Shown: piece after piece, positions 1,746-43,562 of the stretch | How the letters are laid out: every line of letters begins with the position of its first letter | Position numbering within the stretch: the first letter of the stretch is position 1 | Source of the DNA: Bacillota bacterium | GTDB taxonomy: Bacteria; Bacillota; Ch66; Ch109 | NCBI GenBank assembly: GCA_050952625.1 | Contig: JBMNLH010000001.1 | Coordinates: 928,001 to 992,000 of the forward strand | Length of the DNA: 64,000 nt | Reading direction: 5' to 3' | The notes under the pieces: model-generated | What the model saw: the letters and a program-made list of their open reading frames with translations, nothing else | Told to the model about the DNA's origin: nothing | Databases searched by the model: none | Position numbers and translations under genes: made by a program

Positions 1746-3441
1746 ATGTTGATAGGGATTGATGTGGGAGGAACCTACACTGACGCAGCCCTTATCCAGA
1801 ATCGCCAAGTGTTACGCTGGGCTAAGACTCCAACTCGACCAGAATTGCTTTCGTCTTTATTAGAAGTTCTGGATCAGATTATGGAGGGTGTAGACCCATC
1901 GACTGTTAAACGAGTATCCCTTAGTACCACCCTGATTACGAATTTGATTGCTGAAGATAAAGTGGAGCCGGTAGCTTTGCTGGCTATTCCCGGGCCGGGG
2001 GTCAACCCGCATAGTTTTTCAGTTTTTGATAATGCCTATTTATTAAGTGGGGCAATTGATTATCGGGGTAGAGAAACAGCGAAACTTGTTCAGGCAGAAG
2101 TGGCAGAGGTTATTCGGAAGGTAGACCAAAAGGGATTTAACAAAGTCGCCGTTGTCGGCAAGTTCTCGGTCCGTAACAATCAACATGAGCAGGCAATAGC
2201 CAAGTATGTCGCTGATCATTACCCACATATCCAGGTTGAAATGGGACATCAAACAGCCGGTCAACTTAACTTTCCACGCCGAGCCGTCACCACCCAGTTA
2301 ACCGCGGCTACTCGACCGGCTTATCGGTGCTTTATTGACCAGATACGGGCAGCTCTTAAGGAACGTCGGATTGAGGCACCAGTCTACATTTTAAAGGCAG
2401 ATGGAGGCACCTTGCCTTTGGAAAAGGCAGTCGACGTCCCAGTAGAAACCATTTTTTCCGGACCGGCCGCTAGTACCATGGGGGTACTGGCACTGACACC
2501 GGCCGGTCAAACCTCTGTGGTTGTCGATATTGGGGGTACGACGACGGATTTGGCCTTGATCCTGTCCGGTAAACCGTTGCTGTCATCCAAAGGAGCTCGG
2601 GTTAAAGAGCATTTGACTCAGGTGCGAGCCTTTGCCGTGAAATCAGTCGCTTTGGGAGGAGACAGTGCTGTTCGGGTTAAGAACGGGTATTTAGAAGTAA
2701 GCCCGGAGCGAGTGGGGCCCGGCCTGCTGTTTGGGTGGATCAGTTCCAACGCCGACAGATGCCCTGCGGGTTTTGGGGTTGGCCGATATCGGCGAAGAGG
2801 CCTTAGCCCGGGCCGCGATTCGGGAGCTTTCGGCCAAGCTGTCTTCTGAGTTGGTCAGTTCGGAAGAGGACCCGGTTAAAGCTACGGCTAGGTTGGTCTT
2901 AAATATCGTAGTTGATCGAATGATTCGCGAAATTGAGGAGATGTTTTTGGCCTGGGAACAGGAACCAGCTTATCGAGTCTGGGAAATGATGCAAAAAGAA
3001 CGAGTTCGGCCACAAAACGTGGTAGGCGTGGGTGGATCAGCCTCTTCCCTGGTTCCGCTGGTAGCCGAGCGAATGGGTTGTGTGGGAATTATTCCAGAAC
3101 ACGCCCCGGTTGCCAATGCCCTAGGAGCGGCGGTGGCCCGGCCAACCCTAGGAATAACCTTGAGGGTTGATACTGAACAAGCGTTTTATTCAATCGCAGA
3201 AGACGGAACTCAGAAAAAATCAACCAAACTAAGTAAGTATCACCTTGAAGAAGCTCAGAATCTTGCCAAGCAGTTACTCAAGGAGCGGGCCGAACAGATG
3301 GGTCTAAGTGGCTACAGCCAGGAAGCAGAAGTGACGCATAGTGAATTGTTTAATATGATCCGGGGATGGAGCCGGGTTGGTCGACTGATTGATGTTGTCG
3401 TTCAGATACCAGCCGGGCTGATTCCGGAGTGGGTTGATTGA
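1746..3441 (+). pseudogene. Hydantoinase/oxoprolinase family protein with a frameshift near 2720 (real or sequencing error)
   Basis: GIDVGGTYTD and VVDIGGTTTD in ORF 1746-2849; GG..PTPTDAL and VANALGAA continue in the other frame (2731-3441); one extra base in GGGCCCGGCC. Confidence 0.85.
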
Positions 3442-31319: not shown

Positions 31320-31546
31320 GTGTTAATATATTATTGTATTGTCTAAAAGCAGGGTTTTAACAAATTAGATTTACCAAATAGATTCTCAATTTATCCATTA
31401 AAAGCTAGGTTAATCCGTTGCTAGATGGATATTCAGGCAACGGAATTTATTTATACTATGGATATGAAATGACAAATTATATTAATCACAAATTAATAGA
31501 TTGCTTGTTTAATAGAAATAAAAACGCAAATTAACATAGTAAGTCA

Positions 31547-31569
31547 TTAGTGATGCATAAAATTTAACC
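31547..31569 (+). repeat. Dispersed TAGTGATGCA-type repeat end
   Basis: CATTAGTGATGCATAAAATTTAA is the exact reverse complement of 40911-40933; a variant occurs at 42052-42070. Confidence 0.75.
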
Positions 31570-31657
31570 CATTTCTTCTAAGTGCATTTTACACTGGCTT
31601 ATATATAGGGTCAAATAGACGAAGATTGAATATTCTGAACCGAATAGTCTGGAAAAC

Positions 31658-32203
31658 TTGCCGTATCCCTTATTTGTCAAAACTCGGTTTGATATCGGGA
31701 CTAAAAAAATAGCCAAAGCCAATAATCCAGAAGAGCTTGAGCAGCTACTGCGGGTTACAGAGAAACCAATAATTCAGGAGTATCTCGACGGCGAGGAGTT
31801 TACCGTTGATCTATTAGCTGATTTGTCGGGCAAGGTGATCATGACTTCTCCTCGAAGGCGGCTTGAGGTTAGAGAGGGAATCAGCACCAAAGGAATAACC
31901 GTCAAGAATGAATTGTTATCTGAACTGGCTGCGGCTTGCGTTGAGACATTTCCTCTACCCGGGGTATCTAACGTTCAGATAATAGTTGACCAATCCCAAA
32001 ACAGGTTGTGCGTAGTCGATGTTAATCCGAGATTTGCAACTGGCGGACTACCGCTGGCGATTGCGGCCGGTTTTAATATTCCCGACTTACTGATAAAGCT
32101 CTTATTAGGTCAACCACTTAAAATAGTTGAGCCAGAGGCAGGCGTAGTTATGATGCGGTATTGGCATTCAGTGTGCGTTAGAAGTGATCAACTCGTTAAC
32201 TAA
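31658..32203 (+). pseudogene. ATP-grasp protein fragment (N-terminally truncated)
   Basis: YPLFVK, IIQEYL.GEEFTVD, DVNPRF; no N-terminal domain or clear RBS. Confidence 0.65.
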
Positions 32204-35632: not shown

Positions 35633-36631
35633 TTATTCTCGACCATAAGCTTTAGGCAGCCGGCCACTGGTCACTGATTCGGCCCGTAATTGACGACCAA
35701 CGATCCGTTCGACCATTGCTCCCAGATCAAGGAGTTTATCAACGTCTATTCCGGTTTCGATGCCCATTCCATCCAGCATTACCACCAGGTCTTCGGTGCA
35801 GACGAGGCCGGTTCGGCTAGGATCGGAGTAATAGTACTTACCGGTTCCAGATACCGGAACTCCATCGATAAAGTTAGCCGGTTGGCCACCAATACCACCC
35901 AAAGTAGCGTCGAAACAGGCAATCCCTGCCTGCATTGCGGCTAAGACATTAGCCAAGCCCCAGCCTCGGGTAACGTGAAAGTGGGCAACGTGCCTTTCCG
36001 GATGCGGGTCACGGTCCAGGACCTTGGCGAAGTATTCATAAATCTTATCAGGACTGGCCTGACCATCATGGTCAGCGTGGCAGACATCGTCAACTCCCAT
36101 CTTTAACAGCCGGTCGGTAAAGTCTACTGCCCAGTCCATCGGGACCGGACCAGCAATTGGGCAGCCCCAGATGGTACTAACTGTAACTGAGAATTTAATC
36201 CCGGCATCGCGCGAAAGTTGCAACCACTTTTCGATATTGGCCCAGTGTTCGGTAATCGGCCTTCCCGCATTAACCAGGTTGTGAGCCTCACTCGTCGAGA
36301 TAGTCACTGAAATCCGGTCCGGGCCATATCCGGCTTCCTTATCTTTAATTGCGTCCATTACTGCTCGTTCAGTCATGGTTACGACGGTGTATTCCATTCC
36401 GGGAACCCGTTTGATTCGCTTCATCAGTTCATGGGCATCCTTGAATTGAGGCATCCGTTTGGGATTGCCAAAGTTTGATACCTCAATTTTTTTAAAACCG
36501 GCATCAACCAAGGCATCCAGAACATACATCTTGGCATCAGTGGGAATAAACTTCTCTTCGTGTTGGAAACCATCGCGGGCGGTGATGTCACAAACATGGA
36601 CAAACTTGGGCAGATTGGCAAATGGGTTCAT
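35633..36631 (-). CDS. Hydroxymethylglutaryl-CoA lyase-like (DRE-TIM metallolyase)
   Basis: RDGFQHE, HFHVTRG, GGIGG, TEDLV. Confidence 0.88.
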   Translation of the reverse strand: MNPFANLPKFVHVCDITARDGFQHEEKFIPTDAKMYVLDALVDAGFKKIEVSNFGNPKRMPQFKDAHELMKRIKRVPGMEYTVVTMTERAVMDAIKDKEAGYGPDRISVTISTSEAHNLVNAGRPITEHWANIEKWLQLSRDAGIKFSVTVSTIWGCPIAGPVPMDWAVDFTDRLLKMGVDDVCHADHDGQASPDKIYEYFAKVLDRDPHPERHVAHFHVTRGWGLANVLAAMQAGIACFDATLGGIGGQPANFIDGVPVSGTGKYYYSDPSRTGLVCTEDLVVMLDGMGIETGIDVDKLLDLGAMVERIVGRQLRAESVTSGRLPKAYGRE

Positions 36632-36815
36632 GTAATTAAACTCGCTCCTTTCAAGCCTCTCGTGTAAAACTGATTAGGTTTGCGTTTTCCGGCTTATTGC
36701 TTACTGATTCTACAAATAAAGCACTTTTTCCTGCTAGCGGATAGGAAGAGTTGTCAAAGAAGATTGAAAAATCAAGCGGGTAAAACACAGGTATCAATTA
36801 GTTGTTAATTGCAAA

Positions 36816-36839
36816 TAACCCGCCTATACCGGCGGGTTA
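36816..36839. terminator. Hairpin downstream of the sigK 3' half (probable sigK terminator)
   Basis: TAACCCGCC-N6-GGCGGGTTA. Confidence 0.65.
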
Positions 36840-36908
36840 AATTATGATTTAGCAGTAAGGGCAATTCAGTTTTATAATATAATGGACCGAATATTATCAA
36901 ACGAATAA

Positions 36909-37202
36909 TTATGGTTTGTATTTATTGGATGGGGAATCCATTGACAGTTCGCGCATCAGTTTTTGAATGGCTCGCTTCTCAATCCGACTAACATAACTCC
37001 TGGAGATTCCTAACATCCTAGCTATTTCTCGCTGGGTTTTTCGAAAACTGTTAAACAATCCAAAACGTAAGACTAGGACGTTTCTTTCGCGTGGGGATAG
37101 TCGTTTGACTCTTTCACGTAATCGGTCTTCCTCAAAACGTCCCTCTACTGTCTCTTGAACTATCTCCGGTTCAGTGCCTAGAACATCTAGCAGGGTGATT
37201 TC
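36909..37202 (-). CDS. sigK: sigK 3' half (spoIIIC equivalent; regions 3-4), no start codon, missed by the ORF track
   Basis: Hand translation: EITLLDVLGTEPE...LSPRERNVLVLRFGL...KTQREIARMLGISRSYVSRIEKRAIQKL; 97 codons then TAA. Confidence 0.95.
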   Translation of the reverse strand, partial: EITLLDVLGTEPEIVQETVEGRFEEDRLRERVKRLSPRERNVLVLRFGLFNSFRKTQREIARMLGISRSYVSRIEKRAIQKLMRELSMDSPSNKYKP

Positions 37203-37231
37203 GTTAACCTCTCCATGTTATCTATTGTATT
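37180..37231 (-). other. attR-like site (P-GA-B'), core GA at 37202-37201
   Basis: Minus strand ATAGATAACATGGAGAGGTTAAC-GA-AATCACCCTGCTA. Confidence 0.88.
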
Positions 37232-37247
37232 AACCCGAGACAAAAGA

Positions 37248-37510
37248 CTACTTTTTATAAATGTCTCCGCGTGGCCCGATGACCTCAATAATTATTAATT
37301 GATCTTCAATTATAAGGTCATAAATAATCCGTATGTCGCCAATGCGACCCCTGTACTTCTGATTAAAGCCCCGTAACTGCTTAATATTTGTCCGCTGAGG
37401 GGATCAACGGAAATGGCTTCAATTGCAGCCGCAATACGTTTTTGGGTAGCCCTATCAACACGTTTAAGATAGTTGCGAGGCTGAGCTAACAGCTTGACCT
37501 CATAGGTCAA
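37248..37510 (-). pseudogene. RelE/ParE toxin, frameshifted
   Basis: MTYEVKL...RIAAAIEAI..DP, then in a shifted frame IKQLRG...YRGRIGDIRIIYD...IGPRGDIYK. Confidence 0.85.
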
Positions 37511-37877
37511 GTTCTCGTTTGAGCTCATCCCAGCTAACGCCACCTTTCCGACGTTGTTCCTTACTCAAGGCTGCTATTTCATTTTCTGGCCAATCTAAGT
37601 AAATAGTATCTTGGCAGGAAGGGCAGATGAATTCATCATGCCAGGTTTTAGTTTCATCCGTGTTTGGATTATCCAGTAGATCAGCTAACACTAGGGGTGT
37701 GCTGCATGTGGTACAAAACGGGTCAATGTAGAAGGGGCTGCTCCCAGGCCGTGGTATGACCGCACTTTCTGGTTGTACCCTTTCTACTAGTTTTTCAAGA
37801 TACTTTTTGGCTCTCTCTATGTTTTGCTCCGGAAGCCTAGCAACTAGGCGGTAAAGCTCTTCCTTGGGTAAGCTCAT
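37500..37877 (-). CDS. Probable antitoxin with CxxC...CxxC insertion
   Basis: KEELYRLVARLPE N-terminus, GVSWDELKREL C-terminus, overlaps the toxin start. Confidence 0.7.
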   Translation of the reverse strand: MSLPKEELYRLVARLPEQNIERAKKYLEKLVERVQPESAVIPRPGSSPFYIDPFCTTCSTPLVLADLLDNPNTDETKTWHDEFICPSCQDTIYLDWPENEIAALSKEQRRKGGVSWDELKRELDL

Positions 37878-38026
37878 TAAAAATCATCCCTTCTGCTTTT
37901 CCCATTTTTTCTACCTTTCCCACAGTACTTTAGGTAGTTTTACCCCCTTCAACAATTAATCCAGTCTCTGGAGAGTAGCGTACATAATTATATTACCAAT
38001 TAGTTACTATAACTGTAAATTATAAT

Positions 38027-39598
38027 TCATATTAATAGATAAACATTAAGCGTAAAGTTATCAAGCCTTGCGCTTTTTTCTTTATAATACACGGCTTTAT
38101 CTACGATAGTTTTAAGTAGTGTATTTTTCTTTACTACATCGTCGGTGGCTTGGTAAGCGTCCAGGACATGCCGAATGGTCGGGATGATCTGCTGGTGGGT
38201 GCGCTCCCGTTCCTCAATTTCATTTATTTCATCCTGAACCTGTTGCAGAGACTTGCTCGCGGCCTCGATCCTCTCAGTAACAATCTTATTGCGTTCAAGG
38301 TAGGTGGGTATATCATAGACACCCTGTTCCAGAAGGTCCTGGAGGCGTGACTTTTGCTTTTGCAGTTCCTCTAGCTGCCTGGTCAAGTTCTCGATAACCG
38401 AATTAGGTATAAGCGGTTCAGCCGTGGCCGCTATCTCCCGGGCCAGTTGCTCCTGGTTCAGTTCTAAGTTTGCTAACTCTTCCTCCAAGGTTTGCAACAA
38501 CCTTTTTTCAACAAAACTGAAAAGGGACGATTTGTTGTCACATCCTGCATGGATGCATTTACACATATTAGATTTGTGTCCGGACTTTTGTTTATTGGAT
38601 TGTAAAACCATTCGGCGTCCGCATTTGCCACAAACGATCAGACCGGCTAAAGGATTTTTAGGTTTCGTCTTTGTGCGCACAACAGTATTTTTTTTAAGGT
38701 TGTTTTGTGCAGCATAAAAAATATCCTTCTCGATTAAAGGTTCATGCTTCCCTTCTACATCAATCCACTGCTCCCTGGGACGAGCATAACCTATTTTACG
38801 GGATCGATCCCGATATTTCTTTTTCCACTGAATTCGTCCGATATAAACCTCATTGCTAAGTATAAAACGAACAACAGAAGGTTCCCAAACACCTCCTCTA
38901 ACCGGGCTTTTAACCTTCATTTCATTTAATCGATTAGCAATTCTAGTACTGCCAATAGGGTTGCCATCGTTACCATTAACGTACCAGTTATAAATTAGAC
39001 GAACAATTTCAGCATCTTTATTGGGGATCAGGACCTTATCAGGCCCTCGATCGTAGCCAAAAGGGGGACGGGTCCCGATATACTTCCCGTCCTTAACCGC
39101 CATTACCCGACCCCGTTGAAGACGCTTGTTGATAATCTTCAGTTCCCGTCTAGCCATGAAAGCCTCGAATTCGCTCCATTCTTCATCGAGCTCATCATCC
39201 AAGTCATACACCTTCCGAGGGGTAATGATGAGGGTAGAGGAGGCTTTAAACGCCGCCAGAATGGTCCCCTGATCAATCATGTCGCCCCGTCCAAGCCGGT
39301 CCAGATCCATGCATAGGACCGCATCATATTCACCCGCTTCAACTTCATGGAGGAGGCGTTGCATTTCTGGACGGTCTGATATATGTTCGCCACTAACAAT
39401 TTCTTCGAAAATGGATACTACGTTAAGACGGTTGCGCTGGGCCAGTTCGGTAAGAGCTTTGCGATGCTTAGATAAAGTATCACCTTCACCCCGAGATTCA
39501 GCTTCAAAATCTGCCCGGGATTTACGAAGATACATGGCTACTTTATTAAGATCACGAGGAAAATCGGCTGGCAAGATAAACACCCCTGACGATAACAT
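38027..39598 (-). CDS. spoIVCA: Large serine recombinase, SpoIVCA-like (likely start TTG 39574)
   Basis: YLRKSR catalytic Ser, DRLGR, PFGY, Y.G recombinase domain, GLIVCGKCG zinc ribbon, coiled coil; intact. Confidence 0.92.
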   Translation of the reverse strand: MLSSGVFILPADFPRDLNKVAMYLRKSRADFEAESRGEGDTLSKHRKALTELAQRNRLNVVSIFEEIVSGEHISDRPEMQRLLHEVEAGEYDAVLCMDLDRLGRGDMIDQGTILAAFKASSTLIITPRKVYDLDDELDEEWSEFEAFMARRELKIINKRLQRGRVMAVKDGKYIGTRPPFGYDRGPDKVLIPNKDAEIVRLIYNWYVNGNDGNPIGSTRIANRLNEMKVKSPVRGGVWEPSVVRFILSNEVYIGRIQWKKKYRDRSRKIGYARPREQWIDVEGKHEPLIEKDIFYAAQNNLKKNTVVRTKTKPKNPLAGLIVCGKCGRRMVLQSNKQKSGHKSNMCKCIHAGCDNKSSLFSFVEKRLLQTLEEELANLELNQEQLAREIAATAEPLIPNSVIENLTRQLEELQKQKSRLQDLLEQGVYDIPTYLERNKIVTERIEAASKSLQQVQDEINEIEERERTHQQIIPTIRHVLDAYQATDDVVKKNTLLKTIVDKAVYYKEKSARLDNFTLNVYLLI

Positions 39599-39610
39599 CT
39601 TTATCTATTG

Positions 39611-39640
39611 TTATTCGTCGAGGAGAGGGGAATTCCTGCA
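39611..39640 (-). promoter_or_regulatory. SigmaH-type promoter of the recombinase
   Basis: GCAGGAATT-N14-GAATAA. Confidence 0.65.
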
Positions 39641-39641
39641 G

Positions 39642-39836
39642 TTACTTCCTTAACTCCAAGCGTAGCTGAATCAGTACCAACCGCAATTTCCCCATAAGTC
39701 TAATCAATTCCTCCCATAAGCGAAACTGGGTCAACGGGGAGCCAGTAAATGTTTGCTCGTTTGATAACCACCTGGCCAGCCCGAGTGTTCTTTCGACACG
39801 TGGATCGCTAGGTAAAACATCAGTCCTTTTCATCAT
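39642..39836 (-). pseudogene. ImmA/IrrE-like metalloprotease N-terminal remnant
   Basis: LPSDPR...ARWL, then shifted frame NIYWLPVDPVSL; position between integrase and repressor remnant. Confidence 0.45.
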
Positions 39837-40027
39837 AAATTCCTTGAATCCCTAGTAAATAGATTGGAAGTAGAATGTTAGGTTAATTACTAAACTTTAA
39901 TCGATCTCAAATTAGAAGTGCCTATATAAATATAAAAACCTGTCTTTTTATTATCCACAGGTTTTCAGTCGTATATCTATTTAATTTATCTAATCCTGTT
40001 AATTTCTGAATGTTTAATGACATTTTC

Positions 40028-40135
40028 TCACGCTGCCTTATTCACAAGAGCTAGGGCCTTTATCAACTTTTTTCGGTCCCATAATTCAATGTTAGAGTTT
40101 TTGGCTTCTTTCTGAGCCTGTTCAGATAAGCGAGT
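40028..40135 (-). pseudogene. C-terminal remnant of an Mrr-type restriction endonuclease
   Basis: LSEQAQKEAKNSNIELWDRKKLIKAL*. Confidence 0.55.
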
Positions 40136-40180
40136 CTTAATGTTTTTTTCGTTTTCTTGTCAGTCAAGAGAAATCGTGTA

Positions 40181-40372
40181 TTACTTTAACCGCTTAAGAA
40201 TAACGACTTCCTCTTCCTGGGTGGATAAGCGTTTGTCAATTCTTTTGATATCTTCCCAAACGTAACGGAGTTCATTTTTTATTGACGTTACATCTGCTTG
40301 GAGTAACTTTTGGCCTTCGGCCAATGTCTGGAGTTGTTGTAGTACAAGCTCCTGGAATTTCCCGTTATCCAT
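40181..40372 (-). CDS. Small coiled-coil phage-like protein (63 aa)
   Basis: AAAGGAG RBS, MDNGKFQELVLQQL... Confidence 0.6.
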   Translation of the reverse strand: MDNGKFQELVLQQLQTLAEGQKLLQADVTSIKNELRYVWEDIKRIDKRLSTQEEEVVILKRLK

Positions 40373-40409
40373 AGCAATCTCCTTTCTGGTGCCCGATACG
40401 GATCTCAAT

Positions 40410-40470
40410 TTAACGCGGCCAAGGAGATAATCGGGCGATACATTAAAAAAGTCAGCAATAACTAAACATA
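40410..40470 (-). pseudogene. Deletion remnant of an XRE-family repressor
   Basis: RBS plus ATG-TTT-AGT joined out of frame to IADFFNVSPDYLLGR. Confidence 0.6.
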
Positions 40471-40646
40471 GCATCACCTTCCAGTTTATTATACTCACAT
40501 AATGTAAGTAAAACAACGCTCCTCACGTAAGTGAAAATAATTTGAATATGGGGCCCGACTGCTTTCGATCTGTGAGTATAATAACAAATAAAGTTGCTTA
40601 CTAAAAATATCCATGATTGGAGGTAATCACTTACAAAACACACGGT

Positions 40647-40674
40647 TTGTCCTTGACCGACAACTGCATAGATC
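40647..40674 (+). promoter_or_regulatory. Mother-cell-type -10 (CATAGAT) with SpoIIID-like box
   Basis: CATAGATC at 40667; AAGGACAA (WWRRACAR) on the minus strand at 40647-40654; -35 weak. Confidence 0.4.
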
Positions 40675-40693
40675 AGTAGTGGGTGATGCCTTC

Positions 40694-40870
40694 ATGAAAC
40701 CGGAGATTAAGCTGGTCGGCGAAAAGAAAATAGAACGGACAACAATCCGCGTATTCCGTCCAGAGCTAAGTTTTGAAGAGCGAGAGTTTCGAATGAAGTT
40801 ACTGCACACTGCCGTTGCGGACTGCTATCGTTCGTCGACGAATCGGGTAGAGGGTAGCGGCACTAGTTGA
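40694..40870 (+). CDS. 58-aa protein, candidate recombination directionality factor
   Basis: GGGTGA RBS; TTIRVFRPELSFEEREFRMK; small intact gene among decayed ones. Confidence 0.55.
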   Translation: MKPEIKLVGEKKIERTTIRVFRPELSFEEREFRMKLLHTAVADCYRSSTNRVEGSGTS

Positions 40871-40910
40871 GGAGTACAAGATAGGTTGTACTAAGATAAG
40901 AATTTACGAA

Positions 40911-40945
40911 TTAAATTTTATGCATCACTAATGTAGCCTGATTAT
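40911..40945. repeat. Repeat end plus left copy of 12-bp inverted repeat (TAGCCTGATTAT, 40934-40945)
   Basis: Reverse complement ATAATCAGGCTA at 42069-42080. Confidence 0.75.
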
Positions 40946-41145
40946 CTTCTTCAGTACCGACACTTGGCCGGCTCCGAAACTATCAAAAAACCAATTACTC
41001 CCCCTAGAATCAAACTAATAATTGTGTTCTCAATCACGTTTAAACACCCTCTCTTTTTGATTTCACCTTATAAGCCCATCCGGAATAAACTGTAATTAAA
41101 CGCCAGGGTTTTTTCTCCAATTGATTTCCACATTTATCCTTCGAT

Positions 41146-41182
41146 TTGGACAGGCACTAGTTTACGATAACAACCATATTAT
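41146..41182 (+). promoter_or_regulatory. sigK promoter (sigmaK/sigmaE type) with SpoIIID box
   Basis: TTGGACAG (WWRRACAR) at 41146, AC at 41156, 17-nt spacer, CATATTAT at 41175. Confidence 0.75.
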
Positions 41183-41216
41183 GTAGAGCAAGCTCCGCTT
41201 CAAAGGGGGATTAAAT

Positions 41217-41647
41217 GTGTACCTGGATCTTACGACACCCTGGTTATCCTTTTGTTTTCCTGGATTGCTCCTTTTAGTTGGATATATCACTAATCAAACT
41301 TTCCCGCATCCACTGTCCGAAGATCAAGAAACATCATGCCTTCGACGTTTTCGCAATGGCGATGAGGAGGCTAGAAATTTACTTATTGAACATAATCTTC
41401 GGCTCGTCGCGCATATTTTAAAAAAATTTGATGGAACTGGCGAAGATACCGATGATCTTATTTCTATTGGAACCATTGGATTGATTAAAGCAATCAACAC
41501 CTTCGATCCAGATAAAGGTGCTAAACTAGCCACTTATGCTGCCCGTTGCATCGAAAACGAGATCCTAATGCATTTACGAGCATCACGGAAAAATAAAGGT
41601 GAGGTATCCCTATACGATCCTATTGGCACGGATAAAGAAGGTAATGA
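41217..41647 (+). CDS. sigK: sigK 5' half (spoIVCB equivalent) with pro-sequence; reads through to a stop at 41726 in this orientation
   Basis: [67 protein letters not shown]. Confidence 0.96.
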
Positions 41648-41676
41648 GTTAAGCTTGCTAAGTTATCTATCAATTT
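41625..41676 (+). other. attL-like site (B-GA-P'), core GA at 41646-41647
   Basis: GATAAAGAAGGTAAT-GA-GTTAAGCTTGCTAAGTTATCTAT. Confidence 0.88.
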
Positions 41677-41755
41677 ACTGTGGTCAAAAAGTCCCAGGCC
41701 AGCGGGCACAGGAGCGTTTTTCATAGTAAGGCCAGTGCAATTTGTAAGTATTAAC

Positions 41756-42045
41756 TAATTATAGCTTAACTTATTAAATTTAACTGTTTTTAATTTATTG
41801 CTAATATATCCAATAATACCTTTCCCCTGATTTGTCACACGGAATGAAAAAAGTCTCAAGCCTCCAGGTGTTATACGGACGTGCCAAGAAAACAATAGTT
41901 TTTCTCCGTCGATTCCGGTAAACGTATGCTCGTCTTTAAAACGAATTATTGTTTCTGGGCTTTCTGGAGTAAACTTACTTGAAAATTGACTAGGGTCAAA
42001 TTTTCCAGGTTGCCATCTAGTAAATTATTTGTTTAACTCATCTAA
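41756..42045 (-). pseudogene. Fragment of a hypothetical cargo protein beyond attL
   Basis: LDELNK*FTRWQPGKF...TPESPET...TF...FSWHVRITPG...IGYI; internal stop, no start. Confidence 0.5.
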
Positions 42046-42051
42046 TTAAAA

Positions 42052-42080
42052 AGTTTAATGCAACACTAATAATCAGGCTA
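42052..42080. repeat. Repeat end plus right copy of 12-bp inverted repeat
   Basis: TTTAATGCAACACTA followed by ATAATCAGGCTA. Confidence 0.75.
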
Positions 42081-42162
42081 ACGAAAGATTCTTAAACTCA
42101 ACTGGAATCTATGGTTGACTTGAGGCAATGTTTGGATGATGTTATAATGATAAACGAATTGC

Positions 42163-42693
42163 ATGGAGGGTATCGTTTTGAAGAAGAAAATCATCCAGTT
42201 GCTGAGACCGAAGCTTTTTGTCAGATCAATAACGGATGTTACTCCGGACATCCTTGATTCTTTTCAGGTTAAAGGGATTATCATAGACCTGGATAATACC
42301 CTTACTCCATGGCAAAGCGAGTTTTTAGCCCCAGATAATATTCGTTGGCTCAATACTATTAAGAGCCACGGTTTTCAAGTCTGTCTAGTTAGTAATAATA
42401 AGGGCGAAAGAATAAAGAAGATTGCCAGCATCTTGGATATTCCTTTTGTGGCCAAGGCCTCTAAACCCCGGCGACGGGCTTTCTTAAAGGGAATGAAAGC
42501 CATTGGGACTAAGCCTCAAGAAACAGCAGTAATTGGCGATCAGGTTTTTACTGATGTTTTAGGCGGAAACAGACTTGGGCTATGCACGATACTCGTCGAC
42601 CCTTTAAGTTCATATGAATTTGTTGGGACCCGTTTAATGCGGATTCCCGAGCGAGCGGTGCTAAACCTAATTCGGAGGCCGAATAAGTTATGA
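42163..42693 (+). CDS. yqeG: YqeG family HAD IIIA phosphatase
   Basis: DLDNTL, VSNN, KP, IGDQVFTDVLGGNR. Confidence 0.93.
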   Translation: MEGIVLKKKIIQLLRPKLFVRSITDVTPDILDSFQVKGIIIDLDNTLTPWQSEFLAPDNIRWLNTIKSHGFQVCLVSNNKGERIKKIASILDIPFVAKASKPRRRAFLKGMKAIGTKPQETAVIGDQVFTDVLGGNRLGLCTILVDPLSSYEFVGTRLMRIPERAVLNLIRRPNKL

Positions 42694-43562
42694 GCAAAAG
42701 GAAAGAAATAACTGGTGTGACTGAAATATTTGGGGTGATGGGCTATCCGGTAGCCCATTCGCTATCTCCGGCCATACAAAATAAGGCATTTGATTATTAT
42801 GAATTAGATAAGATTTATTTGGCTTTTGCTGTACCCCCCAACTGCCTGACTCAAGCCTTGAATGGTTTAAGGGCTTTAGGCGTAATCGGGGTTAATGTCA
42901 CCTTGCCCTATAAAGAGGCTGTAGCCAGACAGGTCGATCTCCTTTCTCCAGAGGCCCAATTGATTGGGGCGGTAAATGTCTTGCGTTTTGACCAGGATCG
43001 TTTGGTTGGTCATAATACCGACGGTACCGGATTTCTGCAGTCACTTGAACAAGATGCTGGCTTTACGCCTGCCGGAAAAAAGGTTCTGGTTCTAGGGGCT
43101 GGCGGAGCAGCGAGAGCAGTTACTTTGACCCTGGCTCGATTTGGGGCGGCGCATATAAGCATAGCCAATCGAACTCGAAAACGGGCTACGGAACTGGCGA
43201 CAGAAGTTGAGGCAAGAACTGGCCTAAAAGCAGTGGGGCTAAGCTTAGAACCAAGTGAACTGAAACCCTGGGTTCCCGAGGCGGATTTGGTGATTCAAGC
43301 TACCTCGGTTGGTTTATACCCAAAGGGTGAATCGCCAAGTTGGTTTAATCCGGATTGGCTATCGCCAACTGCGTTAGTCTGCGATCTCATTTATCGGCCT
43401 CGACCCTCTGAGTTTTTAAAGAGGGCTGCTTTAAGAGGATGTCGTACCTTAGACGGGTTAGGCATGCTCTTATATCAAGGGGCGCAATCTTTCACCTGGT
43501 GGACGGGTTTGGAAGCACCGGTCGACGTAATGCGGCAGTCATTGTTAAAACAGCTTGGCTGA
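42690..43562 (+). CDS. aroE: Shikimate dehydrogenase
   Basis: HSLSP, NVTLPYK, NTDG.G, GAGGAARA, GLGMLLYQG. Confidence 0.96.
   Translation: MSKRKEITGVTEIFGVMGYPVAHSLSPAIQNKAFDYYELDKIYLAFAVPPNCLTQALNGLRALGVIGVNVTLPYKEAVARQVDLLSPEAQLIGAVNVLRFDQDRLVGHNTDGTGFLQSLEQDAGFTPAGKKVLVLGAGGAARAVTLTLARFGAAHISIANRTRKRATELATEVEARTGLKAVGLSLEPSELKPWVPEADLVIQATSVGLYPKGESPSWFNPDWLSPTALVCDLIYRPRPSEFLKRAALRGCRTLDGLGMLLYQGAQSFTWWTGLEAPVDVMRQSLLKQLG

Follow-up and report, generated by a model that had tools for sequence, protein, structure and literature searches.

The 64,000-nucleotide stretch of DNA analysed here (the window; Bacillota bacterium, GenBank assembly GCA_050952625.1, contig JBMNLH010000001.1, positions 928,001 to 992,000) contains the sporulation sigma factor gene sigK, which is split by a mobile element related to the known skin elements, the two halves of the gene lying on opposite strands. 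The element is a 4.2-kb cassette without a transposase, in which a large serine recombinase and a candidate directionality factor are encoded together with an attachment site (attP) mimicking sigK codons. Two junctions of the locus are marked by a 12-mer inverted repeat and were very probably produced by an IS4-family DDE transposase, which would have joined the two insertion sequence (IS)-like ends of the cassette to a target some 280 bp in front of the sigK start codon. The locus can thereby be described as an inversion-type, IS-built form of the skin theme.

Split sigK gene and inverted repeat

The first-pass annotation of the window had noticed the repeat and read it as the scar of an inversion that turned an excisable skin into an invertible one. 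Its geometry proved right. The 12-mer TAGCCTGATTAT at 40934-40945 and its exact reverse complement ATAATCAGGCTA at 42069-42080 bracket the sigK upstream region with the promoter, the sigK 5' half, the attachment (att) junction at 41646/47 and 421 bp of element DNA. The extent of this block was found as described, whereas the cargo pseudogene proposed within it could not be confirmed: at its place lies an 89-codon open stretch without a Pfam or PHROG family, which matched only unnamed clusters in the protein atlas. With the 5' half on the forward and the 3' half on the reverse strand (Table 1), flipping the block does co-orient the two halves. Unlike in a skin, whose gene halves and att sites have direct orientation and permit excision as a circle, both the gene halves and the att sites are inverted here, and rejoining is possible only by inverting 37203-41645.

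The 5' half scored 226 bits against the NCBIfam model of SigK and 165 bits against that of SigE, and its ratio of nonsynonymous to synonymous differences (pN/pS) relative to the sister species described below is 0.08; the corresponding value of 0.40 for the 3' half is unreliable, an indel near the C-terminus shifting the ungapped alignment. The crossover position in the att sites was inferred from the dyad symmetry of the junction arms around a GA dinucleotide, which read ATAGATAAC..GTTAAC-GA-GTTAAGC..GTTATCTAT in the sense of sigK. The arms are homologous to those of the skins in two other genomes, G193 and G278, and GA is common to all of them.

Taken by itself, the 12-mer repeat is within chance expectation: the window holds 21 perfect 12-mer inverted pairs at most 2 kb apart, compared with 16.1 +/- 5.2 (maximum 29) in 100 shuffles, and the 12-mer occurs five times in the 2.9-Mb genome. 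The pair was nevertheless counted as real, because both copies lie exactly at the edges of the homology with the sister species and both adjoin IS ends. The arms next to the 12-mer copies were also detected as a direct repeat (D5; 22 nt, 77%).

Table 1 Features of the split sigK locus and alignment with the sister species G001 (positions in the window).
Feature	Position	Strand or orientation	Remarks
Homology to G001 1-1181 (BLAST)	43248..42069	reverse	95%
Homology to G001 1170-1882 (BLAST)	40934..41647	forward	91%
Homology to G001 1877-3380 (BLAST)	37206..35703	reverse	95%
sigK 3' half	36909-37202	-	ITLLDVLGTEP...NKYKP, stop at 36909-11; 96% identical to contiguous sigK of sister
attR	37201-37225		Putative crossover dinucleotide TC on + (37201-02) and element-side P arm (37203-25); repeat D3
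E1, larger cassette part	37203-40933		Absent from sister species
RelE/ParE-like toxin remnant	37251-37543	-	Frameshifted over two frames; ParE_toxin match weak (E 0.043, below cut-off)
orf125, 125 amino acids	37500-37877	-	No family; upstream of toxin remnant
Large serine recombinase, 523 amino acids	38027-39598	-	Intact; Resolvase, Recombinase and Zn_ribbon_recom domains; PHROG integrase, E 1.6e-112
orf111, XRE-type regulator fragment	40181-40516	-	PHROG 8 transcriptional regulator, E 2e-05; no Pfam match
orf85, 85 amino acids, candidate recombination directionality factor	40613-40870	+	Homolog beside recombinase in 3/3 closest elements
IS4-type right end (inverted repeat right, IRR)	40875-40933	+	Last 23 nt (40911-40933) identical to IS copies ending ...CACTAATG
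Left 12-mer copy	40934-40945		40934-40942: 9-bp target duplication TAGCCTGAT
Chromosomal sigK upstream/promoter region	40934-41216	+	Inverted relative to sister; 91% identity over 40934-41647
sigK 5' half	41217-41647	+	Ends at putative GA crossover (41646-47)
E2, smaller cassette part	41648-42071		P' arm, 89-codon open stretch, IS left end
P' arm	41648-41670		Within E2
89-codon open stretch	41758-42024	-	No Pfam or PHROG family
IS4-type left end (inverted repeat left, IRL, reverse complement)	42046-42071	+	24/25 terminal positions match, one extra T
Right 12-mer copy	42069-42080		42072-42080: 9-bp target duplication ATCAGGCTA
YqeG-like HAD phosphatase	42163-42693	+	Right chromosomal flank, collinear with sister

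Empty site in the sister species

A search of 41 related genomes with the sigK 5' half led to G001, a member of the same genus, in which sigK is uninterrupted and free of the element (95% identity, 249-codon open frame). Alignment of this empty site to the window fell into three segments of alternating orientation (Table 1), the homology stopping exactly at 37206, 40934, 41647 and 42069. Both copies of the repeat are consequently true breakpoints and the promoter and 5' half are inverted relative to the ancestral order, both as had been proposed. Compared with G001, the window has 3.7 kb (37207-40933) and 0.42 kb (41648-42068) of added DNA besides this inversion. The ancestral order was HMGL-like gene, sigK (reverse strand), promoter, 12-mer site and yqeG-like gene (forward strand). 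At the 12-mer site G001 reads TAGCCTATTTAT, which has 10 of the 12 bases in common with the 12-mer and is present in a single copy.

In silico inversion of 37203-41645 yielded a SigK of 240 residues, 227 of which are identical to those of the sister protein, and left a unit of 4157 bp, CATTAGTGATGCAT...ATGCAACACTAATA, between direct copies of ATCAGGCTA. These 9-bp copies are inverted as sequenced and become direct only after the inversion between the att sites. Judged from its sequence, the 4157-bp unit of the flipped state is a canonical non-autonomous IS4 cassette upstream of an intact sigK; as sequenced, it is distributed over two parts (37203-40933 and 41648-42071), between which the sigK promoter and 5' half are located.

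IS ends at the junctions

A 13-mer taken from the element-side arms of the junctions was found, with at most one mismatch, at 18 sites of the genome: the two arms themselves, ten ends of full IS copies, two end fragments of the IS and four unrelated sites. The IS in question measures 1602 bp and is present in two fragments and in seven full copies, which share 93.6-100% identity with the reference copy. Its open frame of 421 amino acids matched DDE_Tnp_1 (E 7.8e-26) and DUF4372 as well as the NCBIfam IS4 model with 235 bits (cut-off 115), and a Y-2-R-3-E-6-K motif is visible in it (YRNRWAIELFFKWVK). The ends read CATTAGTG/CACTAGTG and are accompanied by 9-bp duplications, which are perfect at five of the seven full copies. 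The IS4 family is delimited in the relevant passages of PMC2266710 by DDE_Tnp_1, the Y-2-R-3-E-6-K motif, CAT ends and duplications of about 9-12 bp; the same passages contain a family table with CAT ends and ~10-bp repeats and references to MIC231. On these sequence features the resident IS is a member of the IS4 family.

The similarity of the left junction to the right end of the IS is complete over the last 23 nt and becomes weaker from 40911 back to 40875, while the right junction corresponds to the left end of the IS (Table 1). We therefore consider it highly probable that the 12-mer consists of a 9-bp target-site duplication (TAGCCTGAT/ATCAGGCTA) made by an IS4-family DDE transposase and of three further bases at which the IS end fortuitously matches the chromosome. 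The palindrome of 16/19 positions with an 11-nt spacer, which the first-pass annotation had obtained by flipping the block, does follow from the sequence of the window; it is, however, not ancestral skin sequence restored by the flip, but the succession of right IS end, duplication and left IS end.

Several further observations concern the same IS. The two full copies outside the group with perfect duplications lie 6.6 kb apart (G000 C1:1115321-1125144), and neither has a matched duplication of its own; instead, one 9-mer, ATATTACTT, recurs in the right flank of the first copy and in the left flank of the second. This cross-match points to a composite unit or to rearrangement of one copy with the other. 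In a contig of run X9 (record 26), 81 nt of IS-like interior and the IS-family left end ...TTAAAAAGTTTAATGCAACACTAGTG that follows them are connected to position 39979 inside the cassette, which is an independent IS insertion in another population. To the right arm of the cassette, including the extra T, this IS end is a closer match than the IS copies of the present genome are. A 96-nt piece of the right end of the same IS occurs at 31545-31640 of the window, beside an ATP-grasp gene that starts in the middle of the domain (31658-32203), an arrangement that looks like an IS-associated deletion.

Independent assemblies

The genome is a metagenome-assembled genome of nine contigs with a completeness of 95.9%, and the first-pass annotation had allowed for an assembly artefact. 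The stretch was present in 20 of the 24 runs listed, from 18 studies (one of them a possible source of the genome). Contigs of four runs from four studies (X2, X9, X13 and X15) were compared with it, some bins of X13 and X15 being without coverage; contigs in general drop rare forms. Record 17 of X2, a single contig of 10,090 bp, covers all of 36500-42600; it has no gaps and differs at 13 bases. Position 40934 is bridged by contigs of X9 and X15, 42069-80 by a contig of X13, 41647 by contigs of X9 and X15, and 37203 by contigs of X13 and X15. Alternative joints at 40934/42080 or at the att sites were seen in none of the contigs of the four runs, from which rare forms would have been dropped.

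The base differences are unevenly distributed. All 13 differences of the X2 contig are located at or to the right of 42077 (42077-42540), inside and beyond the right copy of the duplication, and none in 36500-42076; those of X9 and X15 are mostly found in the flanks (36539-36984 and 42102-42378). The rearranged block is near-identical among strains whose flanks diverge by about 2.5%. Such flank-only differences may stem from exchange with strains that lack the element, the tracts ending where heterology begins.

Genes of the cassette

The recombinase is intact, and its catalytic motif RKSR with S27 is invariant across 12 sequences. The small protein encoded by orf85 matched no family in Pfam, PHROG or NCBIfam; among four sequences, 18 of its alignment columns are invariant. 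When recombinase residues 190-523 were modelled in complex with orf85, the score was 0.75, compared with 0.00 for the best of three controls. Of 80 solved complexes 58 attained this mark, as did 2 of 110 mismatched pairs; because the model was built with our own alignments, these counts apply only roughly. The model runs agreed in at least 84% of contacts, and the predicted local distance difference test (pLDDT) value of the partner was at least 63. In the model orf85 contacts residues 362-374, 470-498 and 512-523 of the recombinase, just after the Zn-ribbon (316-356). Verified directionality factors bind the junction of DBD2 and coiled coil according to the relevant part of PMC12286644. The modelled interface fits this junction, and orf85 was taken as the likely directionality factor, with the model as support.

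The rest of the cassette is degenerate (Table 1), small unassigned open reading frames occurring besides the toxin remnant and the regulator fragment, and no DDE or transposase domain was found among the cassette open reading frames scanned against Pfam and PHROG. Between the XRE-type fragment and the divergent orf85 lies a 23-nt inverted repeat (40486-40508/40562-40584; 83% complementary, inner 14 nt TTATTATACTCACA/TGTGAGTATAATAA), which resembles a pair of operators overlying two TATAAT-like boxes.

Related recombinases and skins

Matches to the recombinase with E <= 1e-40 were obtained in 25 of 401 genomes of the phylum; two loci came from genome contigs and four from metagenome contigs. 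The closest recombinases are 66-71% identical and belong to co-oriented skins that occupy the same sigK codon and have homologous arms and the same GA. The 71%-identical recombinase sits in a co-oriented, prophage-like skin (L074/L078), while the skins of G193 and G278 (~2.3 kb) consist only of the recombinase and an orf85 homolog. Neither the cassette nor its recombinase was encountered elsewhere at more than 71% identity in the 401 phylum genomes, species-representative genomes, metagenome and viral contigs, plasmids and phages. At the DNA level, comparison of E2 and the cassette flanks with the relatives' skins gave no homology apart from sigK, the recombinase, orf85 and the short arms of the att sites. 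With respect to attP, the orientation of the recombinase-orf85 module is opposite to that in the three closest elements. For the att arms of G193 and G278, a hand count put the recombinase-anchored alignment slightly above the sigK-anchored one (32 versus 28 and 28 versus 26, of 46), too small a difference to tell which arm is homologous to which.

Origin of the arrangement

The following history would account for the junctions. A circular replicon with the cassette would have integrated into sigK by means of its recombinase and formed an ordinary excisable skin, in which the two IS ends faced each other across the replicon backbone. The resident IS4 transposase would then have cleaved both ends and inserted them at a target close by in the same chromosome ('inside-out' intramolecular transposition). 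In this single event the backbone would have been lost, the block of promoter, 5' half and attL inverted, and the inverted 9-bp duplication created. For the transposase-made junctions and this history taken together, that is, for a once-excisable skin inverted by a transposase, we see chances that are close to even. We prefer this path because the target lies 1.1 kb from the attacking end, which is natural for an intramolecular event, whereas a random insertion that close would be a coincidence of about 1 in 1000 in a 2.9-Mb genome. The proposal that an excisable skin was turned into an invertible one thus survives as the favoured path, with the reservation that cassette insertion without an excisable stage gives the same structure.

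In such an insertion, a mobile insertion cassette moved in trans by the IS4 transposase would have landed upstream of the sigK promoter, and recombination between its attP and the inverted attB 0.7 kb away would subsequently have split sigK, so that the element was never an excisable skin. We regard this course as possible, though less probable than the first. It would explain why the flipped state is fully canonical, with an intact sigK, inverted ends and direct 9-bp duplications, and why this state has the recombinase antisense and orf85 sense to sigK, like the three closest elements. Moreover, seven potential helper copies of the IS reside in the genome, and the pertinent part of PMC5025042 describes inversion between attP and attB by integrase alone for CD1231 of C. 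difficile on plasmids. However, the cassette would have had to land within ~1 kb of attB and in the correct orientation in a 2.9-Mb genome, in which neither a second cassette copy nor another cargo-bearing pair of IS ends was found. The IS-end motif was likewise present in 0 of 76 loci from other genomes, and for a replicon whose integrase is active, entry into sigK should come first.

Four further explanations are unlikely even when taken together. Homologous or microhomology-based recombination between pre-existing inverted 12-mers, one of them inside a classical skin, would flip the block and make the palindrome ancestral, and the one-off rearrangement of the first-pass annotation would correspond to this. 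Its geometry fits, and 12-mer inverted pairs are common in the window (21). We nevertheless hold it improbable, as it leaves unexplained that right and left IS ends stop exactly at the repeat and that 9 of the 12 bases equal the duplication length of the IS; in addition, 12 bp is very short for RecA-type recombination. The repeat is instead a 9-bp target duplication (plus 3 nt) at IS-like ends. Somewhat less probable still is a replicative intramolecular transposition of a full IS in a classical skin, after which the IS copy at each junction decayed to its target-proximal end. Such an event predicts the end types seen (right end at the left copy, left end at the right copy), but needs two extra deletions, each sparing only 25-60 bp at the correct end, and no transposase remnant was found in the cassette. 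IS4-family elements, moreover, move by cut-and-paste. That the repeat and its arms form a second, still active site-specific switch of the 1.1-kb block, as had also been suggested, is very improbable in spite of the 50-bp dyad of flipped arms and spacer, which resembles a recombinase site. The arms are IS ends that occur genome-wide, with a duplication made by a transposase; the element has one recombinase only, whose att arms are unrelated to them in sequence; the IS ends are now in direct orientation and no transposase substrate; and the flipped form appeared in none of the four contig sets, although contigs cannot exclude rare forms. An assembly artefact, for which the nine-contig assembly with 95.9% completeness might speak, can practically be dismissed as far as contigs allow, since the independent 10-kb contig carries the whole arrangement and contigs of three further studies bridge each junction.

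A number of points weigh against the favoured history and its transposase-made junctions. The terminal base of the left IS end of the cassette (42071) is A, where all seven IS copies have G, and this exchange allows readings of 9, 10 or 12 bp for the duplication; the G001 site, for its part, departs from the 12-mer at two of its 12 positions. The favoured precursor would have had the recombinase in sense orientation to sigK, while it is antisense and adjacent to attL in G193, G278 and L074; for the same reason, the flip made in the first-pass annotation does not simply restore a skin of the relatives' type. A strain with the donor backbone between the IS ends was not found, and there is no cassette copy elsewhere in the material searched, the best recombinase relatives being those with 66-71% identity. 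The favoured path and the insertion of a free cassette end in identical structures that sequence does not distinguish, and inside-out transposition is a process reportedly known from Tn10/IS10, not from this IS. Finally, inversion in sporulating cells is a prediction, and the data are contigs, which drop rare forms.

Predicted function and comparison with known systems

In the mother cell, recombinase and orf85 would recombine attL with attR. Since the att sites are inverted, the gene would be rejoined by inversion and not by excision: the 4.4 kb of 37203-41645, with promoter and 5' half, would flip, and sigK would be rebuilt on the reverse strand without any loss of DNA. In vegetative cells and in the forespore sigK would stay split. 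The IS ends have direct orientation in this split state, so that the cassette could not be mobilised. We propose, tentatively, a natural switch of development that rebuilds sigK by reversible inversion instead of excision and that was created by an IS4 transposase and a phage-type serine integrase acting on one cassette; the inversion would lock the transposon, and a transposable cassette would exist only in the flipped state of the mother cell.

With the skins of B. subtilis (SpoIVCA) and C. difficile (CD1231 and its directionality factor CD1234) the locus shares the splitting of sigK at the DKEGNE region by a large-serine-recombinase element with dyad-symmetric att sites and, in the case of C. 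difficile, the small partner protein (described in parts of PMC5025042 and PMC4191935). Unlike in those skins, the halves of sigK are inverted and would be rejoined by inversion without DNA loss, IS4 ends and a 9-bp target duplication delimit the element, and the inverted segment holds the sigK promoter and 5' half. The minimal skins of G193 and G278 and those of L074/L078 agree with it in insertion codon, GA crossover, homologous att arms and orf85 homolog, but are co-oriented and hence excisable, lack the IS-end motif and have the recombinase antisense to sigK beside attL.

With regard to the IS ends, the locus is comparable to MIC231 (IS231, with ends of the IS4 family), which reportedly also has IS4-family terminal repeats around passenger genes, no transposase, an autonomous IS in the same genome and a duplication of the length typical of the family. 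Here, in contrast, the cargo comprises an integrase, a candidate directionality factor and attP, and the cassette is split, and would be locked, by its own integrase. The chemistry of the IS4 family is shared with Tn10/IS10, where inversions are said to arise by inside-end intramolecular transposition, in which the DNA between the facing ends is lost, an adjacent segment inverted and 9-bp duplications left in inverted orientation. Unlike there, the facing ends would here have come from the integrase splitting the cassette and not from the two IS copies of a composite transposon. Hin/Gin-type invertible segments, in which a small serine invertase acts on the inverted repeats at the segment borders, differ in that the present locus has no second recombinase and its repeats are a target duplication beside IS ends.

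Engineered serine-integrase switches follow the same logic, integrase alone inverting PB to LR and the added factor reversing this (parts of PMC12286644 and PMC5025042); compared with them, the locus would be a natural chromosomal case controlling a developmental sigma factor. No inversion-type sigK or sporulation gene was found in full-text searches of articles, which returned only plasmid inversion assays. The gerE/gin element was considered as a published case of inversion and rejected, the word 'inversion' being nowhere in its paper.

The locus illustrates how a DDE transposase and a serine integrase together can turn an element that interrupts a gene from 'cut out and lose' to 'flip and keep', the same inverted-att logic that synthetic biologists have built. 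If the inversion occurs in sporulating cells, it would be a case in nature of a sporulation sigma factor reconstituted by inversion. Furthermore, sigK halves on opposite strands 4.4 kb apart are easily annotated as a pseudogene, whereupon the present digester organism would wrongly be marked as non-sporulating. The short inverted repeat itself could only be interpreted by means of the empty site and the IS ends of the genome's own elements.

Other sigK arrangements

Additional arrangements of sigK were observed in related genomes and contigs. In L074/L078 (a metagenome and an IMG/VR contig) sigK is interrupted twice: a first element with its own recombinase (25% identical) lies at about residue 65-67, and the larger one (>11 kb) with the 71%-identical recombinase at residue 143. 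In G004, which belongs to the same family as the present genome, a co-oriented skin whose recombinase is a different one (24% identical) interrupts sigK at about residue 118 (loci L013 on C74 and L033 on C183). Relative to G001, the whole sigK::skin of G004 is inverted between the yqeG-like and HMGL-like flanks, an identity of 75% being too low to place the breakpoints; the resulting orientation, sigK followed co-directionally by yqeG, is the same as in the distant G193 and G278. Extra partial copies of sigK are clustered in G028 (C1:1.54-1.63 Mb; six listed, query residues ~65-143), and one further partial copy is present in G010 (C5:209372-209896). These copies may be att-bearing fragments carried by elements.

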